From Okamejei kenojei (taxonomy: Eukaryota): DNA of 64,000 nt. Positions 1 through 47,316 of the stretch are shown here, one piece after another. The DNA lies in contig CM069135.1 in the NCBI GenBank assembly GCA_035221665.1, forward strand, positions 90,396,001-90,460,000. Reading direction: 5' to 3'. Position 1 is the first letter of the stretch, and each line of letters starts with the position of its first letter. The notes beneath the pieces were generated by a model. That model searched no databases, was not told the DNA's origin, and was given only the letters and a program-made list of their open reading frames with translations. The position numbers were made by a program, and so were the translations under genes.

Positions 1-1026
1 TGCCAGTCAGTGGCTGTGTAGAGGAGGCCCGTCCTTGTTTTTGGTTGTGGTCGGGGCTTCTCTCCAGCTTTGACAAAAGTGATTGATTTCTTTGGGGCGT
101 GGTGGTGTTTGCTGTTACCGATGGCAGTGGCTATGTTCTCAGCAACCACCTTGAGCACCTGGTCATGGTGCCACCGATAGCGACCTTCCCCAAGAGACTT
201 TGGGCAGTTGCTGAGGAGATGTTCTAATGATCCTCTTCCAGAGCAAAGTGGGCAGGAAGGTGTCTCACTCTTGCCCCAGACGTGGAGGTTTGCTGGGCTT
301 GGTAGGGCATCGTAGACAGCTTGGACAAGGAACCGGACGCGCTGGAAGTCTGCCTGCATGATGTTTGACCAGGTAATCCTGCTCTGCGGTATGCTCTCCC
401 ACCTTGTCCACCAGAGCTGCACCGTCCTGCTCACATGCTCGTCCTCCACACCTGCTCGGACCTCTTCCTGGATTAGATGGTGTCCCTCCTTGCCCTGGGC
501 CTTGCCAACCGGTGTCTTAGGGAAGTATCCCAAACCCGCTCTGCCAGTTGCCATGACTCCCACCAATGCCTTTTGCCTTAGGCGTGACTCTGCCACCTCC
601 ACTGCTTTCGCCGCCCTCCATTTCCTCCCTGTTCTCACCTCGATGCCAGCCGTTGACACCTTCTGGTCCTTGGAGTCCCTGTACCGCAGTGCCTCTCTTG
701 TTCGCGCCACCATAAACTCTTCCGTGAGGCCACTGAATGGGAGCTGCAAGATGTTACTGGTCCCATACAGTGCAGCACTGTTGAGGCTGCGGGGAAGGCC
801 AAGCCACCTGCGGAGAAAGCCGCTGATCTTCCTTTCGAGGGACTCAACTGTGGTCAATGGAACAGGGAAACCAGCAGAGGCCACAGGACTCGGGGCAGGA
901 TGGAATGCTGATAGATCCAGGCCTTGAATCTGCCTGGCAGACCTGACTTGTCGACTTTGGTGAGCCAGGCTTCAAGGTCTTTGATGGACTTTTGAATGGT
1001 GGCAGAATCTTTCAGAGTTGTCGGCT
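1..1026 (-). mobile_element. HERO-clade (RLE-type) non-LTR retrotransposon fragment: RT thumb region and CCHC zinc knuckle; runs off the left edge
   Basis: The minus frame reads VDKSGLPGRFKAWIYQHSILPRVLWPLL...RRWLGLPRSLNSAALYG...CPLCSGRGSLEHLLSNCPKSLGEGRYRWHHDQVLK, as in HERO ORFs. The 358-927 + ORF is its antisense shadow. Confidence 0.8.
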
Positions 1027-3039: not shown

Positions 3040-4464
3040 GGCTAATGAGAGAATTATAGGGCCTTGTCTGGAAAAAAGAAAGAGGCATGGGTCAGGTACA
3101 GGCAGCTGGGATTTCTGTACCCCTGGAGGAGTTTAGAGGACTGAGGAGCATACTCCAGAAGGAAATCAAGAGGGCAAAATCGAGGCAAAAGCATCTCTGG
3201 CACATAGGATTAAGGAAAGTCCAAGAAGATTTTACAAGTACATTAAGGGAACGTAGTTAACTAATGTGAAAACAGGGCCCTTCAGAAGCCATCTATGTGA
3301 GGAGATGCAGGAGATGCGCAAGATCTTCGAAGAATATTTTTTCTCAGTTTTTACTGTGAAGAAAGACATGAAGATCAGGGATCTCAGAACAGGAAATGGA
3401 GATGTCTAGATGACAGTCCGTATTACGGTCAAGGAGGTGTTGGACTTCTCCCAGGACTGATAAGATATATCCAAGGACACTGTGGGAAGCTAGAGAAAAA
3501 GTTGCAGAAGCCCTCATGGAGATATATGAATCACTATTAGGTACGGTGAGGTTCTGGATGACTGGAGGGTGGGTCATTTTAGATTAGTTTAAATATGCAG
3601 TGCAAAAACCAGCCCTTCAGCCCACCGAGTCCGCACCGACCTGCAATCCCTGCACATTAACACTATCCTACACACACTAGGGACAAATTACATTTATACC
3701 AAGCCAATTAACCGTCAAACCTGTACGTCTTTGGAATGTGGGAGGGAACCAAATACACTCAGTCACGGAGAACGTACAAACTCCATACAGACAAGCACCT
3801 GTAGTCGGGATCGAACCCAGGTTTCCGGCGCTGTAAGCACTGTAAGGCAGCAACTCTACCGCTGCGCCATTGTGCCAGCCCAATGTAATGCCTACTTTTA
3901 AGAAGGGCTGCAAGGAAAAGCCTAGGAACCAAGTTAGTGAGGCTAACATCTGTGATAGGTAAATTACTGGAAAGGATTCTGAGATAAGATATATATTCAT
4001 TTGGATAGACAAAGGCTAATTACGGATAGGCAACGTGGTTTTGTATGTGGAAATTGTATTTCACAGATTTGATTGAAGTTTTCAAGAAGTAACCAAGAAG
4101 GGTGATGAGGGCAAGGCCATAAATGATGTCTCTATGGACCTTAGCAAGGCCTTTGATAAGGTTTTGCATTGTAGGCTGCTCTGAAAGGGTAGACCGCATG
4201 GGATCTAAGAAGAGCTAGCTGCATGGACATAGAATTAGCTTCACAGAAGGAAGCAGAGGGTGGTAGTAGGAGTTGTTTTTCAGACTCTAGGCCTGTGACT
4301 AGTGGTGTGCATCGGCTGGTGTTGGGCTCATTGCTGTTTGTGGTTTATATCAATGATTTAGATAAGAATGCGCAAGGCATGATTAGTAAGTTTGTAGATG
4401 ATACTAAAGTAGGTGGAAATGTAAACAATGAAGATGGTTATCAAAAATTACAGCAGGATCTTAA
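3040..4464 (+). mobile_element. Degenerate CR1 LINE, 5' part (continues at 9111)
   Basis: RT remnant VTSGV...LGSLLFVVYINDLD...SKFVDDTKVGG...YQKLQQDL; the reading resumes directly after 9110. Confidence 0.85.
3578..3881 (-). mobile_element. tRNA-derived V-SINE (HE1-like)
   Basis: Minus strand has an A box (tggcgcagcggtagag), a B box (ggttcgatcccg) and a CR1-like 3' tail. Confidence 0.8.
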
Positions 4465-5453
4465 CAGGGCTGCCAACATTGGGTGAGTTGGGAGTGAGAA
4501 ATTGCGAGACCAAGCCCGAGGGAGCATAGCGGAACTTTTGCATTTTTCAGCTTGAAATTGTGTTATATGGTGCATACTGTAGCGAGTCTTTTAACTTACA
4601 CTTGAATGTAATATATATGCTTTAAATTGGACTAGCTATGAATAAGGTTAGAGTAAATTACATTCCTAATTACATTCCACAGTAGAGCCCAGGCTCTGAT
4701 CCATACGTGCAGCACATGAATGATCTTAGTGTATTAATGTATGGAAATCAGATTATAATCAAACACTTCGCCCATGTTGGCCAACCTGAGTCTCACTGCA
4801 CACTTGGTACTACTCCTGGCCCTGACTCCAGTTGCATACCTTCTCTCATTCCTGTCCCTGATTCCAGCCCTACACCTGGCCCCCTATTCTACCCTGATCA
4901 TAGCTGCTTAGGTTCCCAGTGCTGAACACACCCCTGGTCCCAGCTTTGACTGCACACCGAGTACTATTCCAGACCTTGACTCTGGATGCACACTTGGCCT
5001 TGCTCCTAGCCCCTTTGCACTGACAATATATCTGGCCCACACATAAAGCCCCATATCTGACCCCCTGGACTTAACCTATTACGTTCAAGTCCACAGGTGA
5101 TTAACTAATGCAGTAATCCTTTATGGGGCACTTCACAGACCAAATTATGGATAACAAAATGTGCTACACCCATTGGCTTCCTTGTTATCTAACATGCTAG
5201 TCACTTTGTCAAAGAAGTCATCAATTGGTTGAACACAATTCCCATCCATAAAATTATACTCACTCAGCTGTATAAGTATTCTGATACCATTTCTTTCATT
5301 TTCGTAACAAACTGTCCTGAGGTCATCAGGCTAATTACAAATCAATAACATTAGCCAACTCCGAAACATGAAGCACTGAGCATTGGGATCCAAACATCAT
5401 GGACAACTGTCCTCAGTTCCCCACTCACATCTGGCAGTATTCTCCATCTGAAC

Positions 5454-5690
5454 CAGGGGCCGCGGAGCGTTTTTGAAAGTGGGGAGGCTGAGCGATCACT
5501 GATCACTGGCCTTGGGGGTACCCGGTGAGGGAGTGGAGCAACCGAGTGGGGAGAGGGTGTGGAAGAAAGGGGTCCCCCCTCCCAGGGTAGGAACCTTTTG
5601 AAATTTGATGTATTAAAATCATGTTTTAGTGCATTGTAGAAGTATGATTTCAAAGTTTTTTGTATGAAGTATTTTTAAGAGGTAACCTTT
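5454..5690 (+). mobile_element. Truncated MITE-like DNA transposon end
   Basis: Starts caggggccgcggagcgtttttgaaagtgggg with a G/C-box subterminal region typical of MITEs; no partner TIR seen. Confidence 0.4.
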
Positions 5691-6327
5691 TAAGGGGTAA
5701 CTTTATCCACACAAAGGGTGGTGGGTGTTTGGAACAAGCTGCCAGAGGAGGTAGTTGAGGCAGGGACCATCCCAACATTTAAGAAACAGTTAGACTGATA
5801 CATGGATAGGACAGGTTTGGAGGTATGGACCAAAAGCAGGTAGCGTAGCTGGGACATGTTGGCGGGTGTGGGCAAGGTGCGCTGAAGGGCCTGTTTTCAC
5901 ACTGTATCACTCTATGACCACATTATGCCTCCACCATGCATGAATGCTTCAAAATCAAGTGGTCGAGTTTTATTGCCATATACTCAAGCACAGAAACATA
6001 GAAAATAGGTGCAGGAATAGGCCATCGGCCCTTTGAGCCAGCACTGCCTTCAATATGATCATGGCTGTTCATCTAGAATCAGTACCTCTTTCTTGTTTTT
6101 TTCCCCATATCCCTTGATTTTGTGAGCTAAATGTAACTCTCTCTTGAAAGCATCAGTGAATTGGACTGCACTGCCTTCTGTGGCAGAGAATTCCACAGAT
6201 TCACAACTGTGTGAAGAAAATTTGTCCTCATCTCAGTCCTAATTGCCACCCCCCCCCCCCCCCCTTTATTCTTAAACTGTGACCCCTGGTTCTGAACTCC
6301 CCCAACACCGGGAACATTTTTCCTGCA
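5690..6327. mobile_element. Two CR1 3'-end fragments (+ 5690-5920; - 5995-6327) inside the TIR element
   Basis: FTQRVVGVWNKLPEEVVEAG motif on +; the (TTTCTATG)-tailed CR1 3' end on -. Confidence 0.8.
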
Positions 6328-6432
6328 GTTACAGTAAGTGAAAATCTAGCAGACAAGCAGGATGCTTTGTCCAACCACCCCCATTTGAAGTCCACTATCT
6401 TCCACCGTTTCTACCCAGTGCCTGGTACTTAC

Positions 6433-6588
6433 TTCCAGCAGCCACTGGTTGTCCTCCAGGATGCACCGAGCCGCAGCCTGATCCATGCCGGTCACCCGGG
6501 CGAATTTGGCACAGAGACTCTCACAGCAGCGGAGCAACGCTTCAGACGCCTCCGACAGGCCAGGACTCATGCACTGAGGCTGCTCCAT
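6433..6588 (-). CDS. TDP2: TDP2-like (5'-tyrosyl-DNA phosphodiesterase) first coding exon, N-terminal UBA-like domain; no downstream exons found, probably a captured fragment
   Basis: 52 codons MEQPQCMSPGLSEASEALLRCCESLCAKFARVTGMDQAAARCILEDNQWLLE resemble human TDP2 (as recalled) RRLLCVEFASVASCDAAVAQCFLAENDWEME. Kozak GCCATGG at 6588; phase-0 GTAAGT donor at 6432, where TDP2 exon 1 is recalled to end. Confidence 0.72.
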
Positions 6589-6834
6589 GGCCGGAGCTGC
6601 AGTGAGCGACTCGCCAGCCCGGCAAGCACTCGCTAGCCCCGCTCCCCGTCTGCATCTGACCCCGTCGCTACTTCTGCTTCCAACTCCCATGGCCCATGCA
6701 GTTGATATGAGTTTTGAAATTTTTGTTGATCACAGAATTTCTCACGACAGAGCGTGAGAAATTTGTGATCAGCGTGAGAATTTTGGCGAAATGCGTGATT
6801 CTCCACGCTCAGTGCATGGGAGTTGGCTTCCCTG

Positions 6835-7880
6835 CCTCTCTATCCCCCTCTCTCCTCCCCCTCTCTCACTCTCTCCCCCTCTTTCCCTCCCCCTGTCTTC
6901 TCCTCTCTCTCCCTCCCGCTCTCTCTCTCCCTCTCTCTGTCCCCCTCTCTCCCTCTCCCCTCTCTCCACCTCTCTTTCCCTCTCTCTCCCACCTCACTCT
7001 CATCACTCTCTCTCTCCCCTCACTCTCTCTCTCCCCTTCCTCTCTCTCTCCTCTCACCCCCCCCTCTCTCTCCCCCTCTATCTCTCCCTCCTTTCACCCC
7101 CTCTCTCTCCCCCTCTCGCTCTCTCCCCCCTCTCCTCTCTCCCCATCTCTCTCCCCCTCTCTTTTCCCCCTCTCTCTCTCTTTCCCCTCTCTCTTGTCCC
7201 CTCTCTCCCCTTCCCCTCTCCTCTCTCCTCTCTTTCCCCTCTCTTTCCCCTAACTCTCCCCTTCACTCCCTCCCTCTCTCTCTCCTCTCTCCCTCTCTTT
7301 CTTCTCTCTCTCCCCCTCTTTCTTCTCTCCCCCTCCTTCTTCTCTTTCCCCCTCGCTTCCCCCTCTCCCTGTCTCTCTCCCCCCCTCTCTCTATCTTTCT
7401 CCATCCCTCTCTATTTCCCCCTCTCTCTCCCTCTCCATATCGCTCCCTCTCCACACTCTCTCCCCCCTCTCTCTCTCTCTCCTCTCTCCTCTCTCTCATC
7501 CCCCCCCTCTCTCTCCTCCTCTCTCATCCTCTCTCTCCCCCTCTCTCTCCCCCATTTCTCCTCCCACCTCAATTCTCCCCCTTGCTCTCTCTCCCCTCTC
7601 TGTCTCTATCTCCTATTTCTCTTTGCCCCCCATCTCCCTCTTATTCCCCCATTTTTCTCTTTCCCCTTTCCCTCTTCCCCCCTCTCTCTTTTCCCCCCCC
7701 TCTCTCCCATTCTCTCCTACCCTCTCCACCCCCTCCCTCTCTTCCCTCTCACTCTCCCCCCTCTCTCCTACCTCACTCTCTCTCCCCTCTCTCCCCCCGC
7801 TCCCTCTCTCCCCTCTCTCTCCTCTCAGCCCCTCTCTCTCTCCCCCTGTCTCCTTGTCTCCTTCCCCTCTCTCCACCTCC
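6835..7880. repeat. ~1.05-kb CT-rich polypyrimidine/polypurine low-complexity tract
   Basis: Almost only C and T on +; it generates the spurious S/L/P and E/R/G ORFs. Confidence 0.95.
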
Positions 7881-7901
7881 CTTTGAGAGTCTCTGTCCCA
7901 G

Positions 7902-7976
7902 TGGCACAGAGACTCTCGCGGCAGCGGCGCAACGCTTCCGACGCTTCCGATCGGCCCGGGACTTGCACTGCTCCAT
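7902..7976 (-). pseudogene. Frameshifted second copy of the 5' half of the TDP2-like exon, forming part of the transposon right arm
   Basis: ATG GAG CAG TGC...TCG GAA GCG TCG GAA GCG TTG CGC CGC TGC CGC GAG AGT CTC TGT GCC A aligns with 6507-6588 with a net frameshift; it ends in a fold-back hairpin at 7885-7917. Confidence 0.7.
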
Positions 7977-8002
7977 GGCCGGAGCTGCAGCGAAGCGACT
8001 TC

Positions 8003-8885
8003 CGCCAGCCCCGCAAACACTCCCGCAACACTCCAGCCCCGCAAACACTCACTCGCCAGCCCCGCAACACTCGCCAGCCCCGCAAACACTCGCCAGCCCC
8101 GCAACACCTCGCCATCCCGCAAACACTCTCGCCAGCCCCGCAAACACTCGCCAGCCCCGTAAACACTCGCCAGCCCCGCAAACACTCGCCATCCCGCAAA
8201 CACTCGCCAGCCCCGCAAACACTCGCCAGCCCCGCAAACACTCGCCATCCCGCAAACACTCGCCAGCCCCGCAAACACTCGCCATCCCCGTAAACACTGA
8301 AACACTCGCCAGTAAACACTCGCCATCCCGCAAACACTGTAAACACTCGCCGCCCCCAGGCCACCGCCAAACACTCGCCAGCCCCGCAAACACTCGCCAG
8401 CCCCGTAAACACTCGCCAGCCCCGCAAACACTCGGCAGCCCCACGCTCGCCAGCCCCGCAAACGCTCGCCAGCCCCGCAAACGCTCGCCAGCCCCGCAAA
8501 CACTCAGCCCCGCAAACACTCGCCAGCCCCGCAAACCTCGCAGCCCCGTAAACGCTCGCCAGCCCCGCAAACCTCGCCCGCCCCGCAAACACTCGCCAGC
8601 CCCGCAAACACTCGCCAGCCCCGCAAACACTCGCCAGCCCCGCAAACACTCGCCAGCCCCGCAAACACTCGCCATCCCGCAAACACTCGCCAGCCCCGCA
8701 AACACTCGCCATCCCGCAAACACTCGCCAGCCCCGCAAACACTCGCCAGCCCCGCAAACACTCGCCAGCCCCGCAAACACTCGCCAGCCCCGCAAACACT
8801 CGCCAGCCCCGCAAACACTCGCCAGCCCCGCAAACACTCGCAGCCCCGCAAACACTCGGCAGCCCCGCAAACACTCGGCAGCCCG
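8003..8885. repeat. GC-rich minisatellite, 19-bp unit CACTCGCCAGCCCCGCAAA, ~45 copies
   Basis: Tandem array visible directly, with variant units (gccatcccgc, ccccgtaaa, aacgctc). Confidence 0.95.
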
Positions 8886-9110
8886 GCTTTCCGTTCGCAT
8901 CTGTTCCCGCCGCTACATCTGCTTCCATCCCTCCCTCAGCCCCGGCTCTCCAACACCCGTGGCCCATGCAGTTTATCTGAGTTTTGAAATTTTCGTTGAT
9001 CACAGAATTTCTCACCACAGAGCGTGAGAAATTTCTGATCAGCGTGAGGGCGTGAGAGTTTCTTCAAATGCGTGATTCTCACGCTCAAAGCGTGAAAGTT
9101 GGCAGCCCTG

Positions 9111-9688
9111 ATCTTAATCAGTTGGACAAGTAGGCCCAAGAATAGCTAATGGAGTTTAATGGAGCTAATGCATTTTGGGACGTCAAACTAGAGCAGGATC
9201 CTCACAGGTGCCTGGGGAGTGTTGTCGAGCAGTGGGATCTAGGAGTACAGGGCACATAGTTTCCCGTCACAGGTAGATGGGGTGGTTAAGAAGGATTTTG
9301 GATACATTGGCCTTCATCAGTCAGAGCATTGAGTATAGAAGTTGGGACATTACGCAACTATTGTAAAAATACATTTATCGTATTGTTTAAGAAAGAACTG
9401 CAGATGCTGGAAAAATCGAAGGTAGACAAAAATGCTGGAGAAACTCAGCGGGTGAGGCATTTTTAGAGTATTTAGAGCATTTAGAGTATTTAGAGTATTA
9501 GAGTATGAGAGTATTGTGTTCAGTTTTCCTCACCCTGCTACAGGAAAATGTCATTTAAATGGAAATAAATACAGAGAAGATTTATGAGGGTGCTGCTAGG
9601 ACCGGAGCACCTGAACAGTAGGGATTTTATTCCTTGGAATGCCGGAGGATGTGGGGTGATCTTATAGAGGTATATAAAATCATGAGGG

Positions 9689-9737: not shown

Positions 9738-12700
9738 TTTATTACGGACTCAAGGTCCAGACAAGGGGCAACATTACATTAAAAATGCATTGCATCTCAA
9801 ATACCATAAATATATATAAAATCATGGTAAATCACATAAAAAATATCATTTATATATTAAAAAAAAAAAAAACCACAATACTTAATGTAGATGGTTTTAT
9901 ATGCAACCAATAATATAGTTACCTCACTCCCATTAACCCCGCCCAGTTAACATCAATCATAACGCCTTCCCCTCAGTAGAAAAAATGTAGCCTGCTTGAA
10001 GGTGTATGTATACCCAGTGCTATCATTAAAAGATGTTGTACACTTAAGACCTTGTAAAGTTTTCATTTACATGGTGTCGAAGCTGGAAGATACTTGCGTC
10101 TCCTGTTTATCGGTTTTTTTATTTCTTTTTTTTGATTTGTGTTTTTTGTGCTTTGATCTCTTTGGCCATGGCGTCCTCTTGCAGAAGCCGAGCAACTTTG
10201 TCTTTGATGCTGACATCTCTGAGCGCTGGGCCACGTTTGAATTTGATTTCACACACTTTGTCACGTCGCACACCGCGCTGATCCTGACTCCCTTAAAGCT
10301 TCCCTCCTCCTCAACCTTGTCGACCTGATGCCATGAAGAGAAGCCAGAACTTTCACCTACGCTCCAGCGGTCCCTGGGTGTCGATGGTGCGGGGATTACT
10401 CCTGCAGAGTCTGCTGACGACACCCGCTTGCCTGCTACGTAAGTTCAGGAGATTTGTGACCTGCCCTCGAACCGCATTCTAGAGAGGGCACGGTTCTTTA
10501 CGAGGAACAGTTTTGCCTGATGAACTGTTGAATGATTTATTGCTGATTTGCGTTATCTCGCCCAGCGGTGCCGTTTTGGCGACATGACAGACCAGCTCAC
10601 TAAGACATTTTAGTAACTGGCATGCGTGACCAAAGCTGCGATGTGAGCTTTTGAGGGATCCGGATCTAACGTTGGACAAGGCTATGCAGCCTGCAGATTG
10701 TCTGAGTGTTTTGCAAGAGGACCACCGGGATTTGGGCAATAAATCTGTCAACCTGGCTGGTTTAGGAGCCCACAGCCTCGGGTGGGAAACAATGTTTTTC
10801 TGCCGCGTGCCCGCCCTGGACCTGGCGATGTGCCCCGAAAAAGATGCCGAACTGTAACTACATGCACCATAGACTGTCGACGTGTCCCGCCTCTGGTAAA
10901 ACCGTAACTTTGTAAAACTTGAACCATTTTCTCAGCCTCCTGTCGCATACTCCGTTCCCGTGGGAGCCAGGCACAAGCTTCCAGTCCCATCTAAACATGC
11001 TGGCCCAATCTGATCTCTGTTTCGACTCACAGCCCAATTTAGTTGAGTGCAATGGTGCGGAGCCAATTAATTCTGCCGAGGACTCTCATGTGTTTACCCT
11101 CCTACAGACACACCCGCCCACCGCAATGATCCCTCCGTACCTGTGACTGTCAATGCGTAACCTTCTCTGCCAAATTAGATACTGGCGCGAGAGTCATGTT
11201 TTGTCCATGAATCTTTTCAACAAGATAAGGAGTAATGAGCCTCTGGTTGTTGACGATGCTACCCTGCACGCCTATGGTGGAGAGATTCTAAGGCCTGCGG
11301 GGAGGGCCACTTTAACTTGCGTGCTGCAAAAGGCCACAAAAACCTGGTTTTCTATGTTTTGAACTCTGACTGTGTAACCCTGTTGGGCAACCGTGCGTGC
11401 CAGGATCTTGGCCTGGTCTCCTTTGACCGCACGGTCCCACAAAGTGGCAACTCTCGTTTGACCCGGTTGCTGAATACCAGGACCTGTTCGACGAGACCTG
11501 GGGAAGTTACCAGTGTCAATACCATATTTCCATTGACCCAAATATACAACCCGTGGTCCGCGCACCTCACAGGGTGTCTCACGCCATGAAGGACAAGGTC
11601 GAGGCGATGCTCAACGAGATGGTCGAAAAGGGGGTGCTAGTAGCAGTTAGCGAGCCCACCGATTGGGCATGTTTTCACCCCTAACGGACTAAAGCCCGAC
11701 CCCTTGAAGGCCGCTGCCATCTCCGAAATGCAGCCCCCACCGACGTGCCAGGTCTGCAACGATTCTTGGGCATGGTGAACTACCTTGGCAAGTTTATACC
11801 AACCTCAGTGAGCTGAGTGCTCCCCTGCGGAAACACTTCTCCACTTTTGGGACCCCGGTCAGGCTGCAGACTGACAACGGCAGGCAGTTTACAAGCCGAG
11901 AATTCAAAAGCTTTGCCGACAAGTGGAACTTTGTGCATTTCACCAGCAGCCCAGAGTACCCACAGAGCAACGGCCTAGCAGAACGGGCCGTCCGCAGCGC
12001 CAAGCTTCTGATGGAACAGGCGCGACTATCCAATTCTGATTTGTATTTGGATCTCCTGAACCTCAGGAATGTTTCCAGGGGATCCGGCCATGGGGTCCCC
12101 TGCTCAGCGTCTGATGTCCAGAACTACCAGATCCACCGTCCCGATTGCCCAGCGCCAGCTGAAACCTCGGGTGCTGGAGCCCGCCTCCGTGCAGAGGCGA
12201 ATTCAAGAGAAACATGACAGCCAGCGGCGTTCCCACGATCGGTCGTGCAGACCACTCGATCCTCTGTTGCCCGGGACAGGTTGTTCGTTTGCAGACCGCC
12301 AGTGGGCACTACCGTCTGGCCACCGTGGTTGGGGTGGCCGACTCACCTCGTTCGTATCTGGTCGACTGTGAGGGTTCCATCTACCGAAGGAGCCGACAAC
12401 ACCTGCTTGCGGTCAATGAGCCACAGCCGCAGCCCCCTGGGCCCTATGCCCCTCCACTCTCCTATCAGCAGCCGGCTGCCGCCCCGGCTGGTGTTCCCTG
12501 CATGCCTCGGTCCCCGTCGCGGGCGCCTGGTTCCCCTCTGCGCGGGTCCCCTGTTGCCGATCGCGGTTCTCCCTCTCCTGTTCTCCCACCCCAATGCCCT
12601 TCCCTGGTTCCTCGGCTGCCTTGCGTCCTCCTGCTTCTTCTGCTCTTTCGGGGGAGGGGGAGACATCCGTACGCGCTCGGGCAGGATCAGTAAGCCGCCT

Positions 12701-13150
12701 GTTCGCTACGGCGATTTCGTTTAATTCTGCTGTTTAATTCGGTTTGTCGTGACAACAATCTGTTTTTTTGATTTCTAAGGGGAAGGATGTAGATGGTTTA
12801 TATGCAACCAATAATATAGTTACCTCACTCCCATTAACCCCGCCCAGTTAACATCAAATCATAACGCCTTCCCCTCAGTAGAAAAATGTAGCCGGTGCTT
12901 GAAGGTGTGTGTAATACCAGTGCTATCATTAAAATATGTTGTACACTTAAGAGCTTGTAAAGTTTTCATTACACTTAAGTTAAAAATCCAGAGTAAAAAA
13001 TGATCAATGTCGTACAACGAGACAACGATACCAGTGTCTCCACAACTGGGATTCGTAGCGTGTAGTGCTAACCCTTATGTTTGTCGAGGCCACAATAAGC
13101 ACATTTTTAGAGTCATTTATCCTGCAAATGAATTTATACATGTGGTGTCT
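9691..13150 (-). mobile_element. 5'-truncated RTE-X-like LINE 3' end with (TTA)n tail, split by the Gypsy insertion
   Basis: (TAA)n at 9691-9736; the minus ORF end LRHHMYKFICRINDSKNVLIVA...SQLWRHW resembles RTE-X C-termini. Confidence 0.55.
9886..12973 (+). mobile_element. Internally deleted Gypsy LTR retrotransposon (Mag-like)
   Basis: 186-bp TG...CA LTRs at 9886-10071 and 12788-12973; 5-bp TSD CTTAA; PBS TGGTGTC at 10072; PPT aaggggaagga; remnants of gag with zinc knuckle, protease LDTGA, RT pieces and integrase TDNGRQF...YPQSNGLAER. Confidence 0.93.
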
Positions 13151-13985: not shown

Positions 13986-14216
<231 letters not shown>

Positions 14217-23599: not shown

Positions 23600-23881
<282 letters not shown>

Positions 23882-41431: not shown

Positions 41432-41629
<198 letters not shown>

Positions 41630-43673
41630 CTAAAAGGAAAAAGAGGAGTGTTTTAGCAGCAACATGCATAGCAACATACATTTTCTTTAATTAGCACTGT
41701 TACTGCCTGGAACCCACATCCACATTTTCTGGTGAGATGATTTGGCCAGTAACTACATCAACAGCTTCCCAAATATTTGTGCACGCTCTCTCCCAACTGA
41801 GATTTATTTTTCTGCCCCCCTACCCCACTATCAGTTATCACTCTAATTGTAAACACTGAGTAAAATGGTTCTGTTTTAATATTCCTCACATCTTTTAACT
41901 TTGTCATGACCTTGATGTGAAAACCAGGGATCCTTTTTGCTTTTAATACAGCATAAAATTGTTTGAAAAATATATATTAAACTGACATTCTGAGTGGGCA
42001 GAAGAATAGCTTTTGTGAACAATAGAAGCCTTTGCATGGGAGAAGGGAAAGGAAGTGTGCACCGCTGATATCAAGGTTTAACTTCGAATTATCAGCAAAG
42101 ATCTTTACTTCTCAGCATTCCTTGCCAGAAGTCCAAGTACTCTTTGCTGAACTGATAGATGAGGATTCTTGCCATCAAAATAAAAACTTTGATATTCTGT
42201 CCTCAATCTTCAAAATTTGATGCTAGAACAAACCAAAACAGTGAAGTGTAGTGAGGCCAGACAGGACGAGCAAAATTATTTTGATTTTTAATAAAAACGA
42301 ACAAAAACCCATGAGGTACGCGTGTCTGACTGAACTAACAATAACAGCTGCTGTTGCTGGGAGGAGCGCTAACTAACTGACACACCCCAAAAGCCCGCGC
42401 AAACCAACATCCCGCGGTCACATGACCGCACTTTCCAATGAAGAGTGTCCTGCCCTCTCCACCCCACCACTAGATGCCGCTACAGGACGCCCCCAGAACC
42501 CGAGGAAAGGAAACGAGCGGGCGTCCGAACGACCCAACCAGACCGAGTGGAGACAGGAGGGACCGGCACAACCGGTGCCACAGTCGGAACCAGGCAAACA
42601 GGCGGAAAAGGGGAAACAGGCACAACCAGGGAACATGGCGCGGCCGGCGGACAACCCCTACGCCGGGGTTGAGCCATCACCGGGGTCGGGCAGTCGACAT
42701 CCAAATGAGCAGGCTTGAAGCGGGCCACAGACATGATCTGCTCACGACCCTTGATGGTAAGCGGCCGAGGAAATCGCCAAAACGCCTCCACCTAACCGGG
42801 AAGGGGTGTAGCCCAAGGAAGGAGATGGAGCTGAGACCGAACTGGCACTTGGTGGCGTTAATGACCAACCCGTGATCCCGGAGCCGCTGGAACAGCACGC
42901 GGAAGTGCTCACAGTGTTCATGATGAGAATGGCTGGCGACCAGAATCTCATCGAGATAAATGAAAACAAAGTTCAAACCTTGAGCAACCATGTCCTTCGG
43001 GCATTGAAAAGCCTGCACGACATTTTTAAGTACAAAAGGCATCCGCAACCACTCATACAGGCCAAACGGAGTAATGATAGCAGTCTTGGGCACATCATCG
43101 GGATGGACGGGAATCGGATGGTAGCCATGCACCAGATCGACCTTCGAAAATATGATAGCACCATCCAAATGAGCCGTGAAATCCTGGAAATACGGGACCG
43201 GGTAGTGATAGGCGGTAGTGACGGTATTCAGGCGGCGATAATCCCCACACGGCCGCCACCCCCCGGACGACCAAGGAACCACGTGAAGTGCGCCCTAGCA
43301 TGCAGTGGAGGGCCAGCCGTGAGGATGTGATGCTCCGCGCCATGCTATGGGGCAGCCGAATGGAATCGTGGGGTCAGGATTTCCGGGAATTCCGCCAGAA
43401 TCGAGGCATAAGCCCCGCCCACAGCCGACACAGACCCGAGCTGCGGATCGAGAGAAACCGCGGGCCTCGGGGCCACAGGCAGGGGGTGCCCGGAGGAACG
43501 AGGCACTGGCCCCGGACGTCCACAATGAGAGAAAAATCCCACAAAAAATCAGCTCGAGCAACGACTGGGAGTCGTCCGCGATTGAGAAGGGCCACGAATA
43601 ACGGTGAGAATCGAGGAAGAAGGAAAGAGTCCGAGTTCCGTAGGAGCGAATGGGGCTGCCATTAACGGCGGCC

Positions 43674-45473
43674 CTCGTGCTTTTCTACGAGATTCCAAGT
43701 TTATGTTAACGAGTTTCAACGAGTTCCCATGTGTATGTCTAACTTTGCCGTTTACTTCTCATTTCTGCGAAGTACCAAGTTCCTCTTGAGTCAACAACAA
43801 CTACCGACATGTGGAAAAATCATCACACGGGGACTAAGAGTGCAAAAGAGCAGCGAGACCATCTCTGCTCATACTACAATTCAATATTGGGCAGTGTGCC
43901 GTGGCAGGACAGCGTACTTTGAGGGACAGCTGACAACAGGTACACCACTGCATGAGGAGAGCCCACATGCAGACAAATTCAGTAAATGTCATGTTCAGTT
44001 TAAATCCTGCTGACTTTGTTTGATTTAACTTTAAGTGTGGATTTATATTTTCATTTTAGTGTAAATAATTTCATTGCATCTATCTGTTCTTGAAGCAGTG
44101 ATTATCATGCATCTGCTTGTCTGATTAGTGTAGGTAGATCTCAAAACATAGCCATTGAGTGCATTGCATTGTCTGTTTTATTGCCAGAATTTAGGCTTGT
44201 GCTCTATTTCTCAGCTGAATGAGAGGAAATACTGGAAATAGTTCTTAGTGTTTTATTTGTTAATTGACATGTATGAGAAGCCCTTCTTCAAACCACTGTG
44301 TTATTTGCTGTGGTGCTCCTTTTCTCAAGATGTGCAAAAATGTGCTTTATTTATTGAACAAGATGAATAAAGACTTTGTTTCACATTGTCTTATTTTCTG
44401 ATCTACTGAGAGGTTAAACTGTTTTACATCTAAAAAGCACAGCACATGAGGCACCTGAGTCCTTCACTCTCACAAATGATTGTGAGAATCAAGATGTGAA
44501 TAGATTGTATCACTTCCTCTATTTTGTGTTTTATGAAAGGGGTTGGATAGGCTAGATGCACGAAGATTGTTCCCGATGTTGGGGAGGTCCAGAACAAGGA
44601 GTCACAGTCTAAGGATAAGGGGGAATTCCTTTAGGACCGAGATGAGGAAAACATTTTTCACACAGAGAGTGGTGAGTCTCTGGAATTATCTGCCACAGAA
44701 GGTAGTTGAGGCCAGTTCATTGGCTATATTTAAGAGGGAGTTAGATGTGGCCCTTGTGGCTAAAGGGATCAGGGGGTATGGAGAGAAGGCAGGTACAGGA
44801 TACTGAGTTGGATGATCAGCCATGATCATATTGAATGGCGGTGCAGGCTCGAAGGGCCGAATGGCCTACTCCTGCACCTATTTTCTATGTTTCTATGTTT
44901 CTATGATGAAAGGGATATTACATTCAAGTCATGAAACTTTGGAATGATATTAAAATGAAGACTTGCAGACATCAATTTGATTTTGATAACAAAGAACTCT
45001 CTTTTATTGTGCATAGAAGTAAACAAACAATGAGAATCAAACGGATTCGTAAAAAGCTTTTCAACACTATAAGCCATTAGAAAATGTGGGAGTATCCAAA
45101 AAAAATGAAAACATGCTCAAACAGGCAAAAAACAACATAAACATACAGATAAGAATCTACATCAGCTACCGAGTTAAGAGTACCCACGAGTCACTACGGT
45201 AAACTTACAGGCTACTACGGTATTACAATGAGTTTAATAGTATCAAATTTTTCCTTCAAGAGTATATTTGACTCGTGGAAATCTTTCAACATGTTGAAAA
45301 TTTTTCACGAGTTAACACGTTTCCTGAGTACCTTCCGTTAGCGTTACGAGTCGCTAAGTTACGTCCACAAGCTCCGACGTTCCCGCTACGTTCATTCTAC
45401 GTGATTACCACGAGTTTGATTTGTTTTTAACTCAGGACAACTCGTGGGTGGACTCGCTACGTGGGACAGGGGT
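43674..45473. mobile_element. Harbinger-like non-autonomous element inserted in the Gypsy protease region; left TIR lost
   Basis: Right end gtgggacaggggt followed by ttaa matches the Harbinger-type ends at ~51165 and ~58290; the Gypsy frame resumes at AAVNGSPIRSYG. Confidence 0.55.
44542..44905 (+). mobile_element. Young 5'-truncated CR1 insertion
   Basis: 9-bp TSD atgaaaggg (44533-44541, 44906-44914); (TTTCTATG)n tail. Confidence 0.9.
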
Positions 45474-47316
45474 TTAACCAGCAGGGGTATCGAGGCCGAT
45501 CGAAGGTATGATGCTGATCTCAGCCCCAGAGTCCACGAGGAAACGAAGCCCGAAATGGCGATCCCTGACGTAGAGGCGATGTTTCTGGCCGACCGGAATA
45601 GCCTCTACTGGCGATCGGCCGAGGCATTTCCCGAAAACGAGCAGGGGGGCATGGCATTGGCGAGCCTCCGCACCGCAACTTTGGTGGTTATAACACCGCT
45701 GGCGCTTACTGCGAACCACGACGGTGGACTGCGAACCAGCTAAGTCACCCTGAGGAGGAACAGCCCGGCGAGGATGCTGTGATAACGGCATGGACACCAG
45801 GCTGATGGAACCGCCATCCTGCTGTTTGGTAAGCCATAGCTCATCCGCCCGTTCAGCGAGCCGCAGGGGGTCGGTGAAATCAGACCCAGCAAGAAGCAAG
45901 ATGTCATCGGGTATCTGCTCCAGAAACGCCTGTTTGAACAATAGGCAAGGCTGTTGTCCATCCATGAGCGCTAACATCTCACTCATGAGAACTGACGGCT
46001 GACAATCACCCAGACCGTCCATATGTAGCAGCCGAGCCGGGCGATCGCGGAGGCCGAGCCCGAAGGTGCGCTGCAGCAAAGCCTTCAGGACCTCATACCT
46101 GCCAATGGCAGGCGGATTCTGCAGCAACGGCAGCAACCGTGATGCTGTATCCTGGGTGAGAGCGCCCACCATGTAGAAGCAGCAGGTCGCATCCACAACG
46201 ATCTGGCGGAGCTCAAACTGGGCCTCGATATGTGCGAAGCACACATGAGGCTGCGCCGCCCAGAACAAGGGCAGTTTAAGTGCAACCGCATTCTGCTGGG
46301 CGGGCGAGTTGTCGAAGTTCTCGTCGGCGTACATGGCGAGAAGAAATCCGAAAAACGTTCAGATCGTCGAGGTTACCAAATGTAGTGAGGCCAGACAGGT
46401 CGAGCAAAATAATTTTTATTTTTAATAAAAACGAACAAAAACCCATGAAGTACACGTGTTGCGGGGAGGAGCGCTGACTAACTAAATGACACACCCCAAA
46501 AGCCCGCGAAAACCAACACCCCGCGGTCACATGACCCGACCGACCAACGAGGAGGGTTCTGCCCTCTCTACCTCGCCACTAGGTGCCGATACAGGAGGCT
46601 ATTTTACAATTTCAACTCCAACATTTTGATCTATGTTAGCATATTCATTCACCGAGAAGCTCTTTCACTTGATCAAACTTACTTCGGTCTCAAACAGCTC
46701 TAACTGCGGGTCAGTTGTGGCTTCCACGTCATCCTATCTATGTAATGTCAACATTAATAGCAGAGACCATGCTATAATTTAGTTATTCAAACTTGAATCA
46801 CCCTTAATTTGAGAGTGCTGGAGATATAATGGCAGTAAAATATGGCTGCACAGCATCAGTTTTTGCAGTACTTAGAGTTTTTTGTCTTTGTTCATGAATA
46901 ACAAACAAGTACATTTTGCTTTGCTAGCATATTGAACAATGAAGTCACACATGCATCCTACATGCACATCAGTGGAATTCAGGGTAGATATCAAACACAA
47001 ATCTCATGCCAGAATTGGCACTTGGTTCTGGAAAGGTGCCAACATATTGGATAGCAGTGAAAGTGATGCCCTTATCAAGAAATGAACTGGAGGCCATTAG
47101 CTTAACTTGTATTAATGGGATGATGCTGGAATCTATACTCAGGTCATTTCAAAATGCTTAATGTAATGCAATCACACCAAGTCAACATCGATTCATGAAA
47201 GGGAAAAATATTTAACTAATTTAGCTTTAGTTCTTCAAGGACGTGACAAGCAAAGTAAAGAACGGGTAGTAGGTGTTAGGAGAACAGGACATCTGGCAAT
47301 GGGGAACTACATTCGT

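Follow-up and report, generated by a model that had tools for sequence, protein, structure and literature searches.

How did the first exon of TDP2, whose product processes 5'-blocked DNA breaks, come to lie between the inverted ends of a transposable element inside an intron of another gene? The question was raised by a 64,000-nt stretch of the Okamejei kenojei genome (assembly GCA_035221665.1, contig CM069135.1, positions 90,396,001 to 90,460,000; hereafter the window), in which a unit of 4,646 bp with terminal inverted repeats (TIRs), located at positions 4465-9110, carries such an exon. A sequence-only reading of this window had proposed that a non-autonomous element captured the exon and moved it here. 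Comparison with the whole assembly now indicates, with considerable confidence, that the unit is one non-autonomous copy of a large TIR family, that its TDP2 exon 1 is likely a neutral passenger and that the exon was likely relayed from a second, nested TIR element, referred to here as X.

The captured exon and its parental gene

The exon is an open frame on the minus strand, running from an ATG at 6588 to 6433 (156 nt, 52 codons) and immediately followed by GTAAGT. It ends in phase 0 and covers the first two-thirds of the UBA domain. Its earlier identification as a TDP2-type UBA exon with a splice donor was confirmed here: the peptide matched profile PF14555 UBA_4 over positions 2-27 of its 43 (E 3e-4; 20.9 bits against a cut-off of 21.8), had the UBA chain of human TDP2 (6q00) as its sole match (E 0.0055) and was 74 % identical to little-skate TDP2. 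The ATG at 6588 is the MEQPQ codon, equivalent to the shark and ray start. The possibility that the first exon of the little-skate RefSeq protein is itself a transposon copy was considered and rejected, since Amblyraja displays the same QVDGEGE form. Homology continued for about 95 nt upstream of the ATG, a feature not recorded before; this skate-type extension (6589-6683, minus strand) aligned to the N-termini of Amblyraja and Rhinoraja, and its upstream start codon is TTG in the window copy. The extension GLASVCGAGE, found in the copies, was absent from Pristis, Mobula, Hemitrygon, Narcine and shark proteins, which places the capture in the skate lineage.

A native TDP2 gene of seven exons was located on contig C2 (145913232-145941822), which disposes of the suspicion that the sole native gene continued just left of the window. 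Its exons 2-7 matched those of Leucoraja, Amblyraja and Rhinoraja at 294/324, 296/324 and 279/364 aligned residues, respectively. Window positions 5693-6690 aligned with native exon 1 and the first 640 bp of intron 1 (intron match C2:145913502-145914142). The intronic part (5693-6432, minus strand, donor at 6427-6432) displayed two 3' fragments of long interspersed nuclear elements (LINEs) arranged tail to tail, exactly as in the native intron, and the LINE piece at 5693-5914 was 89.7 % identical. The intron-like, LINE-bearing DNA noticed earlier is therefore the start of native intron 1, and its presence in the copy implies capture at the DNA level, as had been supposed; the donor and 0.7 kb of intron 1 were kept, whereas a retrocopy would have exon 1 joined to exon 2. 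The suggestion that the whole of 4780-6600 might match native exon 1 and intron 1 held for 5693-6690 and failed for the remainder: 4780-5450 had no match to the TDP2 gene, and its only match in the native region was another copy of the element. No outer-element ends were seen beside native exon 1. The nearest family copies, in antisense orientation, were found 17-26 kb upstream of it (C2:145887230-145890374 and about 145896089-145896396), and local partial duplicates of TDP2 (exon 1 region and last exon) with many small indels occurred at C2:145725700-145757335 and 145967605-145967883; the latter may be pseudogenes or poorly polished assembly.

Transposition and size of the family

Both ends of the unit consisted of a perfect 13-bp inverted repeat (CAGGGCTGCCAAC; 4465-4477 and 9098-9110), and each flank carried the heptamer ATCTTAA (4458-4464 and 9111-9117). 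Paralogous CR1 copies displayed the heptamer once, followed directly by the right-flank sequence, from which it follows that exactly 7 bp were duplicated at insertion; this emerged from a relaxed paralog test, a first and stricter one having found nothing. The earlier description of TIRs and a heptamer splitting a CR1 reverse transcriptase (RT) frame thus proved correct to the letter. The left part of the target is a CR1-type RT fragment (4193-4464, plus strand), colinear with the paralogous copies, with an open reading frame ending in YQKLQQDL, and the frame resumes from the right duplication copy onwards (9111-9175, plus strand) as NQLDK-stop-AQE-stop-LMEFN.

The duplication lengths called for by the sequence-only reading were tabulated on 51 two-ended copies, scoring exact and one-mismatch matches. 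Forty-two displayed their own duplication of 7 bp (20 copies), 6 bp (17), 8 bp (4) or 5 bp (1), against 1.4 % of shuffled flank pairs; among TDP2-bearing two-ended copies the proportion was 31 of 36. The exon region gave 2,224 first-look candidates, and all 40 that were scored were full length at 90-100 %; a protein search gave 2,128. A 30-letter exon-end pattern matched 706 times with at most one mismatch (reversed control, 0), and the 23-letter left end (4465-4487) had 1,240 exact matches. Reading 9.7 kb inward from the first 40 left-end sites on contig C1 uncovered TDP2 exon sequence in 18, with the exon end in 13 and the 30-letter pattern in seven of these 13, which scales the 706 matches to some 1,300 copies; candidate counts may score second partial copies twice, hence a range of 1,300-2,200. 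The family therefore holds at least 706 members by exon-end matches, and likely 1,300-2,200 by these estimates. The proposal of a single capture moved to this site thus stands for DNA-level carriage of an exon by a non-autonomous element and fails as a one-off event. Copies chosen by their exon diverged from the column majority by about 2-8 %, those chosen by their left end by up to 21 %. In three DNA runs from three organisms the summed depth of the element, which is not a copy number, was thousands of times that of unique flank, so that the family is not confined to the present assembly.

An origin of these copies without transposition, by segmental duplication, retrocopying or assembly artefact, can be given almost no credence. 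The indel-rich partial duplicates near the native gene (C2:145.727-145.757 Mb and 145.967 Mb) do speak for such a process, but copies lie on many contigs within unrelated flanks and with individual duplications, the retained intron speaks against a retrocopy, and the high depth recurs in all three runs. The duplication table refutes these readings unless long reads fail to span the window copy; the misassembly considered earlier is made improbable by the same evidence.

A sibling family with the same outer ends (L243, L244, L245, L220, L225, L226, L237 and L222, on C1) carried GC-rich cargo of another kind, with a donor-like GTGAGT at its end; this may be a further captured first exon. At L252 (C1:75415008-75415063) two family left ends stood back to back, 10 bp apart.

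Nested architecture and a possible relay

From left to right, the window copy begins with the left end of the outer element (4465-4760, plus strand), common to the sibling family without TDP2, followed by internal DNA of unassigned origin (4761-5453, plus strand; 2,149 first-look candidates for 4790-5330). About 860 bp found in many copies are missing from it at 5325/5326. This 860-bp piece displayed, on the TDP2 strand and behind an AG, a 55-codon frame (L246:8195-8359, plus strand; 1,571 genome candidates) for which no named relative was found, one unnamed read-through protein being matched; it is taken for a chance frame or for cargo of unknown kind. The left end of X, with terminus CAGGGGCCGCGGA, lies at 5454-5660 (plus strand), and its left context was the same in nearly all nested copies, whereas free X copies had unrelated flanks. 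Beyond the TDP2 segment follow a degenerate, internal first right end of the outer element (6690-6834, plus strand; 93 % identical to 8949-9048 over 100 nt) and a CT-rich simple repeat separating the two right ends (6835-7880, plus strand); the internal right end continuing into CCTCTCTATCCC had 207 genome matches. A second, partial copy of exon 1 (7902-8952, minus strand), representing its 5' half with an ATG at 8928, was 82 % identical to 6507-6631. It is divided into 7902-8022 and 8854-8952 by a minisatellite (8050-8884) of 45 units of 19 bp (Tandem Repeats Finder: period 19, 44.7 copies), the unit of which stems from the exon's own GLASVCGAGE codons. The outer right end (8953-9110, plus strand), with GTGAGA subterminal words and the TIR, closes the element. 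The X end at 5454, the internal right end terminating at 6834 and the second exon copy had all escaped the sequence-only reading, which was right in noting no transposase gene inside the unit: a six-frame scan showed repeat-derived frames and the TDP2 frame only.

X displayed inverted termini, CAGGGGCCGCGGA on the left and TTCCGCGGCCCATG on the right, and independent insertion sites. A complete X, with both ends and a TDP2 promoter piece, was found inside the outer element at L054 and L311, and its right end in a nested setting also at L312, L313 and L256. The X-specific promoter junction had 113 near-exact matches and 346 candidates. Twenty X right ends were inspected: 11 displayed a clear terminus and a unique flank, two a nested context, two one common flank (in one case combined with the left context of nested copies) and five no readable terminus. 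Free copies included L091, in a TA repeat, and L157, in the intron of a P element; L157 retained native positions 145913057-145914231, extending beyond the window copy on both sides. It was also tried as an autonomous P element carrying TDP2 and rejected, being an X copy inserted in the P intron. Because no consistent target duplication was readable for X, the case for its independent transposition is made by its TIRs and unique right flanks. Nested copies shared one common left junction. The promoter was kept in only one of 39 exon-selected copies and one of 18 exon-bearing copies from the left-end sample, and two exon halves with two right ends occurred in 20/39 and 4/18. A tree of 37 rows was poorly resolved (three of 30 branches well supported, the native exon forming a long branch of atypical composition) and was not used for ordering.

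These forms suggest the following succession. In an ancestral skate, X would have acquired, at the DNA level, a TDP2 stretch reaching from the CpG-island promoter through exon 1 into some 0.7 kb of intron 1, and would have moved on its own. One internally shortened X may then have inserted into a CAGGGCTGCCAAC element, as the single shared junction suggests. Deletion would have removed the right end of X, together with all of the TDP2 promoter lying more than about 25 bp ahead of the start, and duplication of the exon's 5' half and of the right end behind the CT repeat would have produced the double-ended form. A transposase acting in trans would have spread the forms by cut and paste with 6-8-bp duplications, the window copy landing in a CR1 relic within the last FAXC intron, where it is predicted to be inert. 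The earlier view that a CAGGGCTGCCAAC-type element itself took the exon from the gene would thus need revision, in that the element probably received an inner Pack element already carrying it; carriage by a non-autonomous TIR element is retained.

Direct capture by the CAGGGCTGCCAAC element, as a non-autonomous P element acquiring TDP2 by template switching, with X arising later inside it, is nevertheless to be weighed. The 13-bp TIR agrees with that of zebrafish Pdre2 (CA...CTGYCAAC) at nine of 13 letters (10.1101/2024.03.22.586318), 7-bp duplications form the largest class, as in the P-superfamily element Galileo (PMC4168063), and relics of P transposase occur in the genome (39 matches). However, it is the termini of X that enclose the TDP2 piece, and a longer stretch of TDP2 is kept in free X than in the nested forms; 6-bp duplications account for 17 of the 42; and the P loci displayed a different left boundary, CCAAAGATTATAGAG, the CAGGG-type pieces inside them being intron insertions, one with its own 6-bp duplication. 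Direct capture is accordingly held to be unlikely.

The nature of the mobilising transposase bears on both accounts. Published duplications are 8 bp for Pdre2 (10.1101/2024.03.22.586318) and 7 bp, rarely 8 bp, for the Drosophila element Galileo (PMC4168063). Here 24 of 42 duplications were 7-8 bp, with 6-bp ones nearly as common as 7-bp ones and 8-bp ones rare, so that most were 6-7 bp, and no THAP-DDE transposase with these ends was found: none of 39 PF21787 matches was bracketed by them (36 read about 5 kb to each side, three with 1.5 kb), though a partner that is lost or very long may have escaped, and the seven PF12017 matches belonged to P loci of the same set. The P-like assignment made earlier is thus not demonstrated; with two P features lacking, membership is a best guess. 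For hAT elements the rule is an 8-bp duplication, though some groups differ, and 8 bp was seen in four of 42. Termini similar to the present TIR also occur in hAT-Blackjack elements. No hAT transposase with the same ends appeared in the 47 loci read, which were drawn from 150 scored matches out of 1,801 candidates. An even chance is given to a P-like mobiliser, the other half being shared equally between a hAT-like enzyme and any other.

One P locus, L154, displayed the same left end and was tried as a partner; this end proved to be that of a non-autonomous copy of 702 bp, which lies in a transposase intron within a 6-bp duplication of its own. The decayed P family itself (L139-L158 and L259-L272) displayed THAP-like exons and the shared CCAAAGATTATAGAG boundary, the stretches read stopping short of its right ends, and in 14 of 34 P loci a solo CAGGGCTGCCAAC right end occupied one and the same position in the intron.

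Host gene, fate of the cargo and the native exon

The window element sits in the last intron of a gene with GST_N_4 and GST_C_6 domains, which we take to be FAXC. Its exons lie on the minus strand at 41432-41629, 23600-23881 and about 14060-14200, and its final exon about 2 kb left of the window; the stop-to-stop frame of the penultimate exon (13986-14216, minus strand) matched PF17171 GST_C_6 with E 2.7e-11. Exons of one gene on both sides and on the same strand bear out the intronic location given by the sequence-only reading. The same intron contains, at 3-971 (minus strand), a frame resembling the C-terminal zinc-finger region of what is presumably a non-LTR retrotransposon (LTR, long terminal repeat), and six-frame scans pointed to decayed gag, RT and integrase frames of LTR-retrotransposon type in FAXC introns at 10000-12730 (plus strand) and 42680-46358 (minus strand).

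The cargo is likely carried along neutrally, as the pattern of substitutions suggests. Each distinct change was counted once and split by mutation class in 47 copies, four of the 51 being dropped as more than 10 % divergent. Synonymous changes made up 37 of 129 against 32.8 expected (p 0.42) and, among singletons, 21 of 81 against 18.9 (p 0.60); exon and intron diverged alike (3.4 % versus 3.2 %), and only four of 11 left-end-selected copies had an intact frame and donor. The peptide is short of the last third of the UBA profile, corresponding to the third UBA helix, and the window copy has no promoter. Spliced to the last FAXC exon, the phase-0 donor is predicted to shift the frame, which would meet a stop after 40 codons. 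Among the sequencing runs listed as holding the element, none is recorded as RNA, and contigs over the exon in one run guessed to be RNA do not count as evidence of expression.

Several observations weigh against a relayed, neutral passenger. Nine of the 51 two-ended copies had no duplication, and no orthologous empty site was seen: contigs from three organisms cover the unique left flank, and none of those listed bridges 4464. No autonomous partner was found for the outer element or for X. Among three free X copies with both ends, the target duplication was TA-like in two and absent in one, and 13 of 15 X left-end windows missed the end, lying within longer copies. When shared variants entered the raw totals, a synonymous excess appeared (p 0.0008; p 0.019), mostly due to shared CpG variants, and ATG, frame and donor were all intact in 26 of 39 exon-selected copies, a set biased to similar copies.

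The raw synonymous excess would suit a selected cargo, in which the exon, the CpG island or the UBA peptide aids the element's copying success or serves the host, as alternative first exons or as a TDP2 decoy. The GT donor was kept in 39/39 exon-selected and 9/11 left-end-selected copies and the frame was open in 29/39; moreover, TDP2-bearing forms made up 18 of the 40 sampled left ends, and the sibling family, too, has GC-rich cargo with a site resembling a donor. Against this stand the loss of the excess once each change is counted once, the incomplete UBA peptide, the loss of the promoter from the dominant forms and the predicted frameshift in FAXC. Selection on the cargo is therefore considered very improbable, and a passenger remains the preferred reading.

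Since the capture the native exon itself has shifted markedly to GC. Native exon 1 (C2:145913232-145913507, L108) is 79 % GC and differed from the majority of the copies by 19 A/T-to-G/C changes and none in reverse (p 4e-6), while the copies themselves drifted to A/T (129 versus 43). Other skates resemble the copies rather than this exon: it matched little skate at 40 of 54 residues, against 45 of 54 for a natural copy, and diverged much faster than the other exons (294/324; p 0.002). The native gene lost the MEQPQ ATG and is predicted to need a GC donor, changed from GT, to stay in frame. GC-biased conversion at the CpG island is the plain explanation. A rather unlikely alternative is a conflict in which more than 1,000 copies would draw silencing by PIWI-interacting RNAs (piRNAs) or methylation onto the real TDP2, the native exon having escaped by rapid sequence change; on the same reading the outer element may act as a serial collector of first exons from other transposons. 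Escape from silencing aimed at copies has been proposed for maize, according to the available part of that source (10.1101/777037).

Relation to known elements and significance

Gene capture had been regarded as little described for vertebrate TIR elements, yet vertebrate Pack-TIRs are on record: the available part of the survey by Tan et al. 2021 (PMC8277862) reports 370 Pack-TIRs in 100 animal genomes, including four multicopy vertebrate cases (1.4 %), with an example of three copies. Like these, the present family combines a TIR element with a piece of a host gene, has an identifiable parent on another chromosome and several distinct duplications, and, like the multicopy ones, carries GC-rich 5' cargo; its parent is not enclosed by the ends and it contains no transposase. 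It differs from the surveyed cases in its at least 706, likely 1,300-2,200, copies and in its cargo, a first exon with coding sequence and splice donor, nested in another TIR element that moves by itself as well. The tomato Pack-MULE family PM-ZIBP (PMC3310237), with tandem TIRs and 14 copies, is likewise non-autonomous, with a gene fragment, an extra internal TIR and amplification of the multi-TIR form. In contrast to it, the skate element has its extra end at a single side, is about 100-fold more abundant and lives in a vertebrate, and short 13-bp TIRs with 6-7-bp duplications replace the long TIRs of plant Pack-MULEs.

Bat Helitrons also amplify captured promoters and exons to many copies. 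They resemble the present family as vertebrate DNA transposons multiplying a captured exon, and differ from this cut-and-paste TIR element in being rolling-circle transposons without TIRs or duplications. No description of the family or of its TIR words was found in the literature; Repbase, Dfam and the supplements of PMC8277862 were outside the scope, and a library entry may exist. The family is a high-copy, nested variant of known animal Pack-TIRs that stands out by its number of copies and by the likely passage of cargo from one TIR family to another.

Nearly every vertebrate Pack-TIR published so far exists as a single copy, as far as the available part of the survey shows, whereas here a coding first exon with an intact donor occurs at about 1,000 or more places. 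All stages are still in the genome, from the parent gene and the free inner element to the nested complete, truncated and double-ended forms, so that the family documents cleanly, in nature, the ways in which TIR elements come by their cargo, among them its hand-over from one family to another. Its copies can lead gene annotation and read mapping astray at the skate TDP2 locus. They are also closer to the ancestral exon of skates than today's gene is, offering a direct test between GC-biased conversion and a silencing conflict; the latter, if true, would be a transposon-host conflict over a DNA-repair gene in a vertebrate.

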